The notes under the pieces were generated by a model. It was not told where the DNA came from, made no database searches, and saw nothing but the letters and a program-made list of their open reading frames with translations. 64,000 bases of DNA from a virus, in IMG/VR virus record IMGVR_UViG_3300045988_158846, positions 49,605 through 113,604 of that record. One strand, written 5' to 3'. The translations under genes were made by a program, and so were the position numbers. Of the stretch, positions 1 through 64,000 are shown in pieces; the stretch's first letter is position 1; every line of letters begins with the position of its first letter.

Positions 1-1
1 A

Positions 2-1012
2 CAAATAACTCCTAGCTTTTATTTTGATAAAAAAACATAGAAATATGTAAAAAATCAAAATAAAGTTATTAGTAATTTAACAGAAGGTATTGGAGAGAAT
101 ATTTATCAAGAAGAATTTTTATTCAAATTAGTAAATGATCCTATTACATTAACTAAAATAAAACAAGTTGCAAATAGCTCTCCATTCGTTATAGGGCAAC
201 CTATTCCTTAGAATGAAAATGAATAGATGGTAAATATAGATGCACCTATGCCAATTCATATATTTACTCCTGCTAACAGTGGCTTAACTATTTTAAATAA
301 TAAAGTAATATGGGATTCTACAAATTACAATGGACCTCTATTTTCTGAAGGAGACTTGTTTTTTAATATAACTCGATTAGAAGATAATAATGCAAATCGA
401 GGGGAAGTCTATCGATATAAAAATCTTCCTAAAAATACTATAGAAGAACAAAAAAACATTTTAAAAGATGAAATGTCTAACAGTTGGGAATTGATAGGTA
501 ACATAAAAGGCATCCCAGGTATTCCAAATCCTACTAAAATTGTTAATATTACTTTAGTTCCTACTAATAATGATAGTGATAATTTTAAAATTACCTATCT
601 TGGTTCTAATAATTCAAGCACTTTTAATTATAAAATTAATAAATCTCCTAATAGCGGCCCTGAAGGTAATTTAGTTCCGAGTTTAATAACTATTATTTAG
701 AATATTATTAATAAAAAGGATATTTCTTTATCTAATAATACTTTAGTTTTACCTAATTTATTGGTAAATACTAATAACGGAGAAATTTTATTAATAAATT
801 ATTTTACTTCAGAAAATGCAACGCCTGAAAGTTATTGGGGAATCTATACTAATGATTCTTGGAATATAATGTCATTTTCAGGTGGTGGATCTTCTTTTTT
901 AAATAATTAGCCTAATAAATTAACTGAATAGCATAAACAACAAGGATATTCAGTTGATTATTTAGAAACAAAATTTTTAAATAACCATTTGATTTGGCAT
1001 GATTGGGATTAA
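2..1012 (+). CDS. hypothetical late protein, 5'-partial (runs off the window start); Asn/Thr-rich
   Basis: Frame 2 is open from nt 2 to TAA at 1010-1012 if the in-frame TAGs at 38, 209, 221, 698, 908 and 929 are read as sense. An RBS for the next gene sits at 1011-1017. The ORF-track piece 227-700 is an internal fragment of this frame. Confidence 0.55.
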
Positions 1013-1025
1013 GGAGGAAATTTAA

Positions 1026-1433
1026 ATGGATGCTCAATTAGTTGCACAAATATTTCAAATTTGTATTATTCCTTTACTTGGAATTTTAACAACATTTTTA
1101 ATTACTTGGATTAAATCTAAGAAAGATGCTTTAAAGTAGCAAACAGATAGTGAATTAGCTAAAAAATATTTAGATATGCTTGATAATACAATTACTGATT
1201 GTGTTATTGCAATGAATTAGACTTATGTTAATTCATTAAAACAGCAAGGAAAATTTGATAGCGAAGCGCAGAAAAAAGCATTTACTGATGTATATAATAA
1301 AGTAATTGCTATTTTAGGTCAAGATGCTATTGAATACTTGAATTCTGCTGTTGGAGATTTAAATGAATATATTTCTTCTAAAATTGAAAAAGAAGTTAGT
1401 TCAAATAAAATTACTCCAACAGAAACAAAATAA
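1026..1433 (+). CDS. small single-TM membrane protein (holin-like)
   Basis: ATG at 1026 follows an AAGGAGG RBS at 1011-1017. Two in-frame TAGs (about 1134 and 1218) are read through. It ends with TAATAA at 1431-1436. The N-terminal hydrophobic helix is ICIIPLLGILTTFLITWI. A terminator follows. Confidence 0.5.
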
Positions 1434-1437
1434 TAAA

Positions 1438-1478
1438 ATGGGAGAATCAAATGCGGTTCTCCCATTTTTTTTTATGCT
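1438..1478 (+). terminator. rho-independent terminator
   Basis: The hairpin atgggagaatc/ggttctcccat is followed by a T9 run. Confidence 0.7.
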
Positions 1479-1596
1479 TATTTATTATATTAAAATGCCC
1501 TAAATTTTTTCCCAAAAATTTTGACAAAATTGGAAAATTATTTGACAATATTTTTTATATAAGTATAGAAAGAATGAATAAGAAAGGATTTTAGTT

Positions 1597-2028
1597 ATGA
1601 ATTTATATCAAGGTTTTGGAAATAATCAAAGTTATTATCAACCACAAAGGACCAATACAATAATACCTCCGAGTTAGTAGCCATAGCCTGCTTTTATTGG
1701 ATTAAAAGGTCGTCCAGTTTCTTCATTGGAAGAAGCAAGAGCTGCTGCTATTGATTTTGATGGTTCTGTATTTTTCTTTCCTGATTTGGCTAATAAAAGG
1801 ATTTATACTAAGCAAATTAATTTAGATGGAACAGCGTCTATGAATATGTATGAGTATAAAGAAGTTCCTACTGAAGCTTTTAATTCATCTAATTTTGTTA
1901 CTCGTTAGGAATTTGATGAAACATTAAATGATATTAAAGGTGCATTAAATATGATTGCTTAGTAGACTTAGCAATAGAAGCAATAGCCAAAAGTAGAAGA
2001 ATAGCCTAAATAGCAAATTAATTTTTAA
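1597..2028 (+). CDS. small TAG-dense (Gln-rich if TAG is Q) late protein
   Basis: ATG at 1597 follows an RBS aagaaagga. A 143-codon frame contains 11 in-frame TAG codons and ends with TAA at 2026-2028. The ORF-track piece 1726-1908 is internal to it. Confidence 0.5.
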
Positions 2029-2041
2029 GGAGTAATGAATT

Positions 2042-2278
2042 ATGCAAATGAATCCTATGTAGATTATTCAAATGATAAGAAGTGGGTCTAATCCTCAATA
2101 GTTAATGATGTCATTCTTATAGCAATAGAATAGTCCAATAGCGAATAATTTACTATAGATGGCATAGAATGGCAATATTAATGGAATAGAGCAAATAGCA
2201 CGTAATATGTGTGCATAGAAAGGATTAGACTTTGATAAAGAATTTAATTCCTTTAAGCAATAGCTTGGGATTAAATAA
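2042..2278 (+). CDS. small TAG-dense (Gln-rich) late protein
   Basis: ATG at 2042 follows an RBS aaggagtaa. The 78-codon frame has 8 in-frame TAGs and ends with TAA at 2276-2278. Confidence 0.5.
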
Positions 2279-61307: not shown

Positions 61308-61310
61308 ATA

Positions 61311-61345
61311 TCTGATATTGGTGTAGGATTTGAACTGTATATTAA
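61311..61345 (-). ncRNA. tRNA-like fragment (T-loop-like TTCAAAT plus ACACCA), not a canonical tRNA
   Basis: The minus strand reads cagttcaaatcctacacca immediately upstream of tRNA-Gly. No complementary T-stem or acceptor could be built. Confidence 0.25.
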
Positions 61346-61595
61346 GAATAAACAATAGTATGGTAGCTATGACCCAGTTTCATGGTCGCTTTACAAGATG
61401 GCAGTCAAAGGCTGTTATCCTTCGCCTAAAATCTCCATCCAAACCTCATATAAGGAAAACATCTAAGCCGTATCATTTGGATTTCCCAACTCATTTCGAC
61501 TTGCGGATTTGTTACCTACCGCTGTACTACCTGCTAACCTTTCTATGTTAGCCCCGACCCGTCTATTCAACTATCGTTAGCTACTATTGTTTAAT

Positions 61596-61680
61596 GGTAC
61601 CGGTGGCGGGACTCGAACCCGCACAGTGTTGCCACCGAGGGATTTTCTTGCTACTCTATGTCACCATAGCCACATTTCTG
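61596..61680 (-). ncRNA. tRNA-like structured RNA element (canonical T-arm plus ACCA 3' end; other arms non-canonical)
   Basis: The minus strand ends gcggg-ttcgagt-cccgc-caccggt-a-cca (a perfect T-arm, a 7-nt acceptor 3' strand, discriminator and CCA). No matching 5' acceptor strand lies within 80 nt upstream. ggtggc/gccacc flanking the T-arm could form a minihelix. Confidence 0.35.
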
Positions 61681-61847
61681 TGTTGTAGTCTGGACTATGT
61701 CTTAACCATATCTTATGACTTAGGTTGATGGTATATAGTCTCTACACATTTATTAAAATAAATATATATTTTAAATTTAGCTCGGCGTTAACTTAATAAG
61801 TCTTCCGCCGAATTAGCCATCATTCACTTAAGAAGTTTCCTATCTTA

Positions 61848-62312
61848 GTGCTCCGCAATAGACTTAATTTTTCTTCCTCTCCAATTATCTGTATAAGAAT
61901 GACAATTAGGACATAATAATTCTAAATTTTCTAATCTATTATCTGTTCTAATTCCATTAAGATGATGAACTTCTAAATTAATAGGTTGTCCTAACCATTC
62001 AGTATTACCACAACATTCACATTTTCTTCCTCTTAATTTAATTAAAGGATTTAATGTAGAAATGCCATTTTTCTTTACAGAATTTATAGTAAATAAATCA
62101 TAATCATAATTTTCTTTATTCCAAGACTATCCTAAAAAATGAGAAGTATCTAAATTTAATTCTAAACACATTTTTTTAAGAGAAGTAATAGTACCTCCTC
62201 CATCTCGAATATATCCTAACTTACCAGCTAATTCTCGATAGGATTTAGAATTATTTACTATTTTAGTAAGTTCTTCAACAGAAAATTTTCTCTATTTCGC
62301 AATATTACCCAT
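61848..62312 (-). CDS. HNH homing endonuclease
   Basis: ATG at 62312 with RBS ggaggt. HNH motif EVHHLNGIRTDNRLENLELLCPNCH. It has 2 TAGs. Confidence 0.65.
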
Positions 62313-62613
62313 TATTTTTAACCTCCAAATATATTATTGTTTAATATATTTGGAAGAGCGAATGGATAAAATAATCAAGTCTGCCCTGAAGTCCCTTGTG
62401 TCTACCAATTCCACCACACCGGCATTTTCAATATTCAATTGTCAAAATAATTAATCAAGACTCAATTTTGAAAAACAAGTAATTCATTTTAGGTGAACTT
62501 TCAAAAGTAAATTCGCTGTATGAGTCTTATACCTGGCGGAGGGAGTGGGTGCTGCCCCCACTTCACCGGTTTTAGAGACCGGAGCATTTGCTGCTATGCT
62601 ATCCCTCAATGTT

Positions 62614-63372
62614 TTATATTAAATTCCATTCTTCATCAGAATAAGAATTTATTTGTTTTTTTGTTGATGGTAAATTATAATTTATACACCATTTCCGTAT
62701 AGTATTATCACTTACATTATATTTTTGAGCAATTTTAGTAAAAGGTTCAATTCTAATCATTTCTTTTAAAAAAAATTTATCAGGACGATCTTCTACTTTT
62801 CTTTGTCTAATTTTTTCACAGCTCATACATCTAATAGCTTCATAAGTAATTTCTTTACCACAATCACAACAATATTTTTTTTCTTTTCGATTATTTCTTA
62901 AAGGATAATTATATCCTTCTAATCGACGACTTTTACCTTGGTTAATAGTAGAAATAATGTCCTATCCTACATTAAATTGCTATGCAATTTCATTCTAAGG
63001 TATATTAGTAGTTAATAATAATTTATAAATTTGTATTAAATCTTCTTTAGAAATTTTACTGCAATTATTACAATTACCCTAATTTCCTCCGGTAGTTTCA
63101 TTATATCCATTAAAATAAGTATCATAAACTTTAATAAAGTATTTTTCTTTCACATCTAAATCTTTAACATCACATTCTTCTAATATTTCAAATTTAAAAT
63201 TTTCTATACCATACTTTCTAAATGCTTTGCTTAAAGTTTTATTATACTCATTTGATTTTGGATTAAATGCTTTATTTTTTTCTTTAATCCATCGTCTTTG
63301 AATATTAATTGACTATCCAATATAAGATTTTTGATTTATTAAATTTGTAATTTTATAAATTCCGCAAGCCAT
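62614..63372 (-). CDS. GIY-YIG homing endonuclease
   Basis: MACGIYKITNLINQKSYIG-TAG-SINIQRRW places TAG at the motif Gln. The C-terminal domain has a CCDCGK...CMSCEK Zn finger. About 5 TAGs are present. Confidence 0.65.
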
Positions 63373-64000
63373 TTTATCAAACTCCTCTCATTCTATTATT
63401 CTTAAAAAGAATAATAAATCAATTCATCTTTTTCGACCTCGAAATTAATAAATTATATGAATTACAAGACAGTTTAATAAAGTATCTTCTTATGAACCAA
63501 AAACATATGATTATCTTTAATAAAAATTTGCTGAAACTGTCTTTATCTTGTAAATATATTATACTAAATAATTTTTTAATTTTCAAATTACTCAGTAGAA
63601 TGTATTTACAAAAATTAATATATCCAATAGAAATAAACTACACCATAGCCGCTAACCACTTGTAGGGTCGCCTCTATGCCTACCCGCGCCACTAAGTATC
63701 TCAGCTTACCTCGTTTATTAGCTATTGGAATATATTAAATTTTTGACCTATTATTAAACTTATAATATTCACCAATAGGAAATGAATATACAGTTTTTAA
63801 TAATAGGATTTTAATCATTTAATTACAAACAAATAAATAATTAATCCTACCTATTATATGTCCTTTTCGTAGTCCATCACGTCTCATTTTCCACGTCTTT
63901 ATATGAGAGATTACCAAGGATCTCAAATACGCTTACGGACTTGGTAATGGCTTTTTGGTATGTGAGCCACAAACATCCCTATTCAGCTTATTTATAGTGG

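Follow-up and report, generated by a model that had tools for sequence, protein, structure and literature searches.

The 64,000-nucleotide stretch of viral DNA analysed here (IMG/VR record IMGVR_UViG_3300045988_158846, positions 49,605 to 113,604; hereafter the window) is part of a phage genome in which TAG is a sense codon and TGA is not. Codon-level comparison with related phage loci, designated L001 and upward, indicates that TAG is equivalent to glutamine, and a conserved tRNA with the anticodon CUA is encoded in the window. We conclude that the window very probably derives from a large phage of gut Clostridia-type bacteria that has TAG read as glutamine during infection by means of its own tRNA(CUA). 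An original prediction made from the sequence alone had proposed the reassignment of TAG to Gln with TGA and TAA as stops, a proposal that is supported by the comparison of 80 TAG sites, by codon exchanges with the relatives L001 and L004, and by the phage-encoded tRNA(CUA).

TAG is read as sense and TGA remains a stop

We defined a set of 72 open reading frames (ORFs) of at least 80 amino acids with TAG taken as sense. In-frame TAGs (137 in total) were found in 45 of these ORFs, and the remaining 27 contained none. Termination occurs at TAA in 53 ORFs and at TGA in 19, never at TAG. A comparison of coding density under codes 15 and 11 had been proposed as a check of the recoding, and its outcome was favorable: greedy selection of non-overlapping, start-defined ORFs covered 61% of the window under code 11 and 88% with TAG as sense. 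With TGA as sense (code 4), coverage reached 63%. Likewise, the share of the window covered by stop-to-stop ORFs of at least 200 amino acids rose from 43% under code 11 to 72% when TAG was sense and to 45% when TGA was sense. The gain in ORF coverage from reading TAG as sense ranged from 0.27 to 0.50 in the window and seven close relatives and was only 0.04 in the standard-code relative L004, showing that it is not a trivial effect of removing a stop codon.

The TAGs are evenly distributed along genes, without excess toward the C-terminal end. Those located near gene ends (NrdD codon 764 and DnaE codon 857) pair with sense codons in relatives and are therefore not hidden terminators. Furthermore, Pfam domains continue across TAGs in NrdD, the RecJ-like protein, PhoH, the endolysin and the GIY-YIG endonucleases. 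The Pfam NRDD match alone (NrdD residues 122-761) spans four TAGs, the DHH and RecJ_OB domains bracket 13, and all six GIY-YIG proteins contain at least one. In-frame TAGs were counted in each of the genes that had been predicted to require TAG translation, namely the endolysin, NrdD, DHH nuclease, PhoH and tail fibre genes and all GIY-YIG homing endonuclease genes (Table 1).

The claim that TGA stays a stop held as well, as 19 of the 72 ORFs end in TGA, reading TGA as sense adds only 2% coverage, and no in-frame TGA was found in TAG-recoded relatives. ATGA stop/start overlaps had been cited at three places. Two of them, between a homing endonuclease gene and DnaE and between an ORF and NrdG, are present (Table 1), but there is no ATGA between ORF 19042-19512 and the Dda-like helicase, which starts at TTG 19055, 11 nt upstream of the TGA.

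Codon exchanges among relatives point to glutamine

The identity of the amino acid at TAG was judged by codon-level comparison with relatives and not by motif arguments. Using tblastn under code 15 against 48 related phage loci, we were able to align 80 TAG sites of the window. Codons found opposite these sites included TAG (207), CAA (163), CAG (116), GAA (66) and AAA (54). When each of the 80 sites was given equal weight, the partners were Gln (32.6), Lys (8.9) and Glu (8.2), and Gln was the majority residue at 37 sites. We also scored the TAG columns against substitution profiles computed for all sense amino acids from the same alignments. The best-fitting amino acid was Gln, about 71 natural-log units ahead of Lys.

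Comparison with L001, which shares 89-94% nucleotide identity with the window, revealed 13 sites with TAG on one side only. CAA, which lies two substitutions from TAG, was the counterpart at 9 of these 13 sites, and TAGs of the large tail-fibre-like gene (58505-61096) interchange with CAA in this relative. Across five close relatives, we counted 158 distinct events in which TAG was replaced by another codon, 79 of them by CAA or CAG. Besides CAG, the sense codons a single step away from TAG accounted for only five of the 158 events (AAG 2, TAT 2, GAG 1), and TAC, TTG, TCG and TGG for none. In the more divergent L004 (55% overall amino-acid identity), none of the 5182 aligned codons is an in-frame TAG, and this relative therefore uses the standard code; 19 of 37 window TAGs face a Gln codon in L004, as expected from that level of identity. 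Furthermore, three TAG sites of NrdD correspond to Gln in 28-43 relatives. Distant NrdD homologues from the PDB, taken alone, carry K, E, V, S or N at the TAG columns and do not indicate the residue.

A small ORF on the plus strand (1597-2028) is dense in TAG, which makes up 11 of its 143 codons and is located in two Gln/Pro-rich stretches. This ORF is conserved in relatives, where TAG swaps with Gln codons.

Conserved motifs had initially been put forward as evidence for glutamine. The four GIY-YIG domains named in this regard do read Y[IV]G-TAG-[STA] (Table 1), although the coordinates first given for these TAGs are roughly lower ORF boundaries and not codons. However, Gln is not invariant at this position, which is Lys in two paralogues of the window and Q, K, I or L in relatives; the motif is supportive of TAG as Gln, not decisive. 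The corresponding claim for the SQLN motif of the DnaB-like helicase was confirmed by alignment with three solved DnaB structures, in which the TAG of the context MSAT-TAG-LNAD aligns with the Gln of SQLNR. The alignment of the joined DnaB pieces to solved structures runs through their junction.

A non-canonical tRNA(CUA) is encoded by the phage

The original prediction reported no tRNA(CUA) visible in the window. The Rfam tRNA model nevertheless finds one on the minus strand at 62537-62608, with the anticodon loop CUCUAAA. The cloverleaf of this suppressor shows an unpaired U1xC72, a G2:C71 pair, G73 and an encoded CCA. The anticodon stem is normal, with 5 bp, the D-loop measures 8 nt, and the acceptor and D stems are separated by two bases. 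The D-loop (AGCAGCAA) and T-loop (GGCAGCA) are devoid of G18 and U55. ARAGORN, with default and relaxed thresholds, detected only a tRNA-Gly(UCC) in the window and missed the suppressor because of these non-canonical loops. The G+C content of the suppressor is about 58-59%, in a genome of 30% G+C.

The suppressor sequence is identical in L001 and L050, the flanks of which are 92-94% identical. The version found in L049 keeps CUA and displays compensatory changes at pairs 6:67, 7:66 and 28:42. The version found in L051 has G-C at 7:66 and more canonical loops (AGCGGCAA and GUCGGCA), such that G18/U55 and A18/G55 change together between L051 and the window. CUA, U1xC72 and G73 are retained in all three distinct sequences. 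A covariance model built from the suppressor detected no further copies in 47 loci centred on NrdD, and no isotype emerged from the similarity of the suppressor to 34 phage tRNAs.

Recognition by glutaminyl-tRNA synthetase (GlnRS) is established to rely on a weak 1:72 pair, G73 and U35, and we take the U1xC72, G73 and U35 of the window suppressor to match this tRNA-Gln identity set. The unrelated tRNA(CUA) of other recoded relatives also combines an unpaired 1:72 (UxU) with G73. The same is true of one suppressor (U1xC72 and G73) of the recoded phage phAss-1, a genome whose tRNA-SUP-CTA is assigned to Gln by tRNAscan-SE (Babkin et al. 2023, PMC10607447).

Many other tRNAs of this phage clade (in L051, 13.4 kb, and in other loci carrying a RAGATH-33 RNA) have the T-loop GUCGGNA instead of UUCGAAU. 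The non-canonical elbow is thus not limited to the suppressor.

In the scheme that we propose, the phage would supply the decoding agent as the tRNA(CUA) at 62534-62608. We infer that a host enzyme presumably charges this tRNA with glutamine and that the charged tRNA would then compete with release factor 1 (RF1) at TAG. Standard-code genes would be expressed first, and genes containing TAG would become translatable once the suppressor had accumulated, providing a form of temporal regulation.

Several points weigh against this reading. Glutamine insertion at TAG is deduced from comparative patterns only. The function of the suppressor is not guaranteed because the conserved elbow nucleotides G18 and U55 are missing, and covariation support is weak, with three distinct sequences and 77 of 500 shuffles reaching the observed value. 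No release-factor or tRNA-synthetase domain was detected by the Pfam scan, which covered 60 ORFs of the window only; accessory code-change genes of the RF2 or GlnRS type are optional, being found in only some TAG-recoded phages. Finally, NrdD, the RecJ-like protein and the helicase are of replication type and TAG-rich, which blurs any division into early and late genes.

Alternative explanations

Decoding of TAG as another amino acid, be it Glu (through a non-discriminating glutamyl-tRNA synthetase without transamidation), Lys or pyrrolysine, is very unlikely. Although Lys and Glu come next after Gln among the partners of TAG, they belong to the normal substitution spectrum of Gln, which is ahead of both by more than 70 log-likelihood units, and the two-step TAG/CAA exchange predominates among close relatives. 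Pyrrolysine deserves separate mention, as tRNA-Pyl has the anticodon CUA and lacks G18G19 and T-psi-C, the window suppressor is likewise without canonical elbow nucleotides, and ARAGORN, going by the anticodon alone, gives the name 'tRNA-Pyl' to CUA tRNAs found in relatives. We rejected this possibility, since the dimensions of the anticodon stem, the D-loop and the spacer between acceptor and D stems are unlike those of the compact tRNA-Pyl and no pyl genes were found among the window ORFs.

We attribute even less probability to a host that itself reads TAG as sense because it lacks a functional RF1, with the phage tRNA as an accessory and not the cause. Phages matching altered-code hosts exist (code 25; Borges et al., 10.1101/2021.08.26.457843). 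However, the clade includes close relatives with the standard code (L004, L008 and L043) or possibly with recoded TGA, many essential genes of the window avoid TAG entirely, and the locus still holds a tRNA(CUA) in recoded relatives in which the type of tRNA has been swapped. Least credible of all is the idea that TAG is still a stop and that the interrupted genes are pseudogenes, deliberately split genes or assembly artefacts. DnaE, DnaB and GyrB are indeed split by homing endonuclease genes, yet the 137 interruptions all consist of the same codon, never TGA or TAA in frame, and domain matches continue across them. Translation from the same starts under code 11 would cover only 57% of the codons, a loss of about 43%. 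TAG sites are also conserved or interchanged with CAA/CAG in independent assemblies, and we rejected the idea as contradicted by these comparative data. Reading of TAG as glutamine through a phage-encoded tRNA(CUA) is our preferred explanation.

Apparent suppressor exchange and the tRNA cluster

Three relatives (L056, L058 and L060), with flanks sharing 83-91% identity with the window, have, at the very locus of the window suppressor, a tRNA(CUA) that is different and canonical. These relatives are devoid of the GIY-YIG gene located at 62614-63372, and their alignment to the window breaks at the tRNA boundary (62537) and restarts at about 63454. A cassette composed of the tRNA and the endonuclease gene thus appears to have replaced another suppressor, which suggests that suppressor tRNAs undergo cassette exchange by homing. 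We only tentatively extend this to the code change of the clade as a whole, which might be carried by a mobile cassette made of the aberrant tRNA(CUA) (A18/G55, unpaired 1:72) and the GIY-YIG gene, a proposal that we regard as somewhat doubtful. If true, suppressor tRNAs would be exchanged horizontally by homing, and non-canonical suppressors would explain why most recoded phage genomes appear to be without one.

The tRNA cluster contains a tRNA-Leu(UAA) gene (62423-61595, minus strand) in which a group I intron of 742 nt interrupts the anticodon loop (Rfam 64 bits, 61668-61870). The 5' exon (62423-62389) and 3' exon (61646-61595) flank the intron (62388-61647), which harbors an HNH endonuclease ORF (62312-61845) with 2 TAGs. 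L058 possesses an intron-less tRNA-Leu, and its alignment joins position 62389 to 61646, thereby confirming the boundaries. A RAGATH-33 RNA (140 bits; 61469-61581, minus strand) lies between tRNA-Leu and tRNA-Gly and was found in all 15 related tRNA-cluster loci fetched (L001, L050-L064). In relatives, a ROOL RNA (about 590 nt, up to 324 bits) is located beside more tRNA genes, roughly 330 nt beyond the high end of the window (L050, 3030-3622; L056, 8251-8844; L061, 4468-5062; L058, 1-257). The G+C-rich segment at 63600-63720 of the window may belong to a neighbouring structured element.

TAG use differs between genes

TAG accounts for 19% of the Gln-type codons of the window, and its share varies between genes (chi-square 120, 30 degrees of freedom, P ~1e-12). 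This strong heterogeneity indicates that recoding is partial, as in published models. The description of the reassignment as genome-wide calls for qualification, as TAG use is heterogeneous and spares 27 ORFs. TAG-free genes include GyrA (0 of 20 Gln codons), GyrB, the ligase, the N-terminal part of DnaE, a primase-like ORF, the flotillin-like gene (0/24) and the vault protein homologue (0/29). TAG-rich genes include the RecJ-like gene (13 of 23 Gln-type codons) and ORF 1597-2028 (11 of 19). The endolysin and tail-fibre-like genes are recoded and, like the genes for nucleases and homing endonucleases, rich in TAG; NrdD, the RecJ-like gene and the helicase are also TAG-rich. The uneven use of TAG would fit the proposal of Borges et al. 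that genes in the standard code are active ahead of the code switch.

The block at 46880-57498 is almost free of TAG and encodes flotillin-like, phosphoesterase, NADAR, major vault protein (MVP) homologue, DUF2828/DUF7788 and SLH proteins. The vault homologue (51369-53849, minus strand; 826 amino acids) matches rat MVP over residues 325-799 (E = 4e-20) and the Pfam families MVP_shoulder and Vault_3. It is flanked by the flotillin/SPFH (46880-48259) and DUF2828/DUF7788 (54383-55939) proteins. The vault, flotillin and DUF2828/DUF7788 genes have CAG:CAA ratios of 29:0, 22:2 and 12:1, a G+C content of 39-42% and no TAG, and these three large genes also have long antisense ORFs of up to 688 amino acids. 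A 2023 preprint described MVPs in phages, including the TAG-recoded ctOa11 (10.1101/2023.11.10.566534). The latter (BK048656; TAG-recoded, with a vault-protein gene) may be a candidate for the closest described relative of the window.

Gene content, split genes and relatives

The window has a G+C content of 30%. Nearly all genes are carried by the minus strand (4089-63372), with the exception of a short block on the plus strand (227-4046). Pfam matches delineate a replication and nucleotide-metabolism module composed of DnaE (2 pieces), DnaB (2 pieces), GyrA, GyrB, an ATP-dependent ligase, RNase H, a Dda-like helicase, a RecJ-like exonuclease, NrdD/NrdG, dUTPase, guanylate kinase and PhoH. GyrB ends early at the Toprim domain, and its short C-terminal piece was recognised by eye. 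Outside this module, the window encodes the endolysin, tail-fibre-like proteins, six GIY-YIG endonucleases and one HNH endonuclease, an SLH protein, a flotillin-like protein and the homologue of the eukaryotic MVP. No terminase gene is present in the window. Megablast of 24 kb of the window against GenBank phages returned no nucleotide-level match, and the GenBank phage set contained no close relative. Many relatives were found in IMG/VR, on contigs of about 105-220 kb, although a search of IMG/VR for an exact copy of a 51-mer taken from the window end gave none.

Table 1. Features of the window and their coordinates
Feature	Position	Strand	Remarks
Phage genome segment, TAG as sense codon	1..64000		137 in-frame TAGs in 45/72 ORFs; ORFs end in TAA (53) or TGA (19)
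ATGA overlap, stop TGA of ORF 7255-7956 / NrdG start	7255..7258	-	
NrdD, anaerobic ribonucleotide reductase	8273..10573	-	6 TAGs; Pfam NRDD at residues 122-761
ATGA overlap, NrdD / next ORF	8273..8276		
ATGA overlap, stop TGA of GIY-YIG homing endonuclease gene / start of DnaE N-part	16343..16346	-	
DHH/RecJ-like exonuclease (YorK-like)	20182..21924	-	13 TAGs, 57% of its Gln-type codons
TAG at conserved Gln of DnaB SQLNR motif	23763..23765	-	C-terminal piece 23421-23933
TAG in KYVG-TAG-T	24705..24707	-	GIY-YIG protein 24084-24845
TAG in CYIG-TAG-A	30278..30280	-	GIY-YIG domain of ORF 30059-31078
GyrA	33291..35672	-	20 Gln codons, 0 TAG; compatible with standard code
TAG in SYIG-TAG-S	36837..36839	-	GIY-YIG protein 36183-36893
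Endolysin, CHAP + amidase_2	40822..42114	-	2 in-frame TAGs
PIN-PhoH protein	42166..43458	-	4 in-frame TAGs
Block almost free of TAG	46880..57498	-	3 TAGs, all in two small ORFs
Tail-fibre-like ORF	57607..58488		3 TAGs
Large tail-fibre-like protein	58505..61096	-	10 TAGs; no family match, label from the original prediction
Suppressor tRNA, anticodon CUA	62534..62608	-	Rfam tRNA model, 38.9 bits at 62537-62608
GIY-YIG homing endonuclease	62614..63372	-	5 TAGs; directly upstream of suppressor tRNA
TAG in SYIG-TAG-S	63313..63315	-	GIY-YIG protein 62614-63372

DnaE (11213-16346), DnaB (23421-25979) and GyrB (35614-38565), all on the minus strand, are each encoded in two pieces separated by a GIY-YIG gene (13942-14727, 24084-24845 and 36183-36893, respectively). 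An Rfam search revealed no group I intron at the split sites of DnaB and GyrB, which consequently look like genes split by free-standing endonuclease genes. The C-terminal piece of DnaB starts with its own ATG, and the pieces of the three split proteins may be expressed as separate polypeptides.

A 285-amino-acid protein (44311-45168, minus strand) has an extremely Cys/Gly-rich N-terminal half with repeated CxxC-like motifs and no family match. It adjoins a radical SAM/SPASM-like enzyme (45171-46490) with 7 TAGs, which suggests a modified-peptide pair.

An interrupted P-loop in the Dda-like helicase

The coding sequence for the Walker A motif of the Dda-like helicase (19055-17863, minus strand) is interrupted by a 5-nt gap that opens with a stop codon (GCT|TGACT|GGA). 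The first 31 codons, starting from TTG 19055, end with GGC TAC GCT TGA, and the remainder continues in another frame with GGA ACG GGT AAA TCT. Deletion of the 5 nt (18962-18958), between the take-off codon GCT (18965-18963) and the resume codon GGA (18957-18955), yields the canonical P-loop GYAGTGKST. About 40 relatives have an uninterrupted P-loop (GYAG[TSA]GKSTL). The interruption was observed at the identical point in 15 fetched loci and in the window, with gaps of 5, 6, 7 or 8 nt; interrupted relatives are L003, L005, L022, L024, L025, L042, L145-L150, L162, L177, L181, L184 and L185. Every gap opens with TAA or TGA, and its last codon matches the take-off Ala codon fully (GCT/GCA) or at positions 2-3 (ACT, TCC). 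The downstream frame varies with the length of the gap, yet in every variant a hop from Ala to the landing codon regenerates the same protein.

From this sequence pattern, the gap is a candidate for a natural ribosome stop-hop or short translational bypass. Such 'stop-hops' have been described in synthetic constructs (Weiss et al. 1987, as cited in PMC5009743), and according to this 2016 review no natural in-frame stop hopping was known (PMC5009743). A literature search of limited coverage found no published report of a hop in a helicase P-loop. If confirmed, the gap could represent a naturally occurring case in which ribosomes make a short hop across a stop codon. In L186, L197 and L202, an intein-like insert ending with THN and followed by TTLV occupies the same P-loop, making this site look like a hot spot for mobile elements.

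Genetic codes and hosts of the clade

Other genetic codes are encountered among relatives whose NrdD is 62-79% identical to that of the window. L004, L008 and L043 look like standard-code phages, and L040 has TGA opposite TGG. Furthermore, several loci (L040, L016, L017 and a subclade of 41% G+C) show the largest gain in ORF coverage when TGA is read as sense. These observations suggest that TGA is recoded in part of the clade and that codes 11, 15 and 4 coexist within it.

The amidase domain of the endolysin is 60-82% identical to proteins from genomes of Oscillospiraceae, Lachnospiraceae, Flavonifractor, Eubacterium and other Clostridia. Full-length endolysin matches of 97% and 81% are probably phage contigs binned into metagenome-assembled genomes. 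For the RecJ-like protein, most matches came from phages infecting Bacillus, Staphylococcus, Lactococcus, Enterococcus and similar hosts. Together, the amidase matches to Clostridia and the RecJ-like matches to Firmicute phages agree with the predicted Firmicutes (now Bacillota) host.

As to practical consequences, the window genome and its numerous relatives in IMG/VR are mis-annotated under code 11 and call for translation table 15. The suppressor provides a concrete example of a non-canonical tRNA missed by a standard tRNA finder, and the apparent swap of suppressor type at one locus between near-identical phages is equally useful. A clade of about 50 loci that comprises TAG-recoded, standard and possibly TGA-recoded genomes also lends itself to the study of code flips.

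Comparison with known recoded phages and suppressors

The window is a further case of the known recoding of TAG to Gln in phages, and it adds little to a principle already established and confirmed by proteomics in other phages. The novelty implied for recoding in a phage of a Firmicute host does not hold, because both Borges et al. (10.1101/2021.08.26.457843) and Babkin et al. (PMC10607447) had already described TAG-recoded phages with predicted Firmicutes/Clostridia hosts. The former study described large alternatively coded gut phage clades (Agate, Sapphire, Jade and others) with predicted Firmicutes or Bacteroidetes hosts, as well as clades mixing codes 11, 15 and 4 (10.1101/2021.08.26.457843). 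The phages studied here resemble these clades in TAG recoding, tRNA(CUA) genes, mixed codes within one clade and a size of about 105-220 kb; lysis and structural-type genes are recoded in both, and the recoding of replication genes is variable. Unlike in those clades, several nucleotide-metabolism and nuclease genes of the window are among its most TAG-rich. Borges et al. predicted, but did not show, that non-canonical tRNAs account for missed suppressors, and the suppressor of the window has such a non-canonical elbow.

The Phassvirus group (about 136 kb) also reads TAG as Gln and has predicted Clostridia/Eubacteriales hosts (phAss-1, OQ749652; PMC10607447). phAss-1 and the window have in common TAG as Gln, tRNA-Sup-CTA genes and predicted hosts of Clostridia type. 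They also share a syntenic module encoding DnaE, helicase, primase-like, RecJ-like, NrdG/NrdD, GIY-YIG, GyrA/GyrB, radical SAM and PhoH proteins. The suppressors of phAss-1 adjoin nrdD, whereas that of the window is located in the tRNA/RAGATH-33 cluster beside a homing endonuclease gene, and the tRNAs of phAss-1 are canonical, unlike the window suppressor. Membership of the window in Phassvirus was rejected, as megablast gave no match to GenBank phages and proteins of the module share 23-48% identity, compared with a criterion of genome synteny and nucleotide identity of at least about 80% with phAss-1. On these protein comparisons, the window appears to be a distant relative of phAss-1 and not a Phassvirus member. 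NCBI taxonomy lists a 'Caudoviricetes code 15 clade'.

Recoding of TAG to Gln is known in Lak megaphages. In crAss-like phages, it was confirmed by metaproteomics (code 15; Peters et al. 2022, PMC9523058). Both groups share with the window the TAG-to-Gln recoding associated with phage-encoded suppressor tRNAs. These phages have Bacteroidetes as hosts. A cellular counterpart is found in supE of E. coli, a tRNA-Gln CUA amber suppressor that arose as a point mutant of a cellular tRNA and suppresses partially. By analogy, the window suppressor would resemble supE as a tRNA(CUA) placing Gln at UAG, with its identity set by the weak 1:72 pair, G73 and U35. Unlike supE, it is phage-encoded, its D/T-loop elbow is altered, and the genome it serves contains at least 137 sense TAGs.

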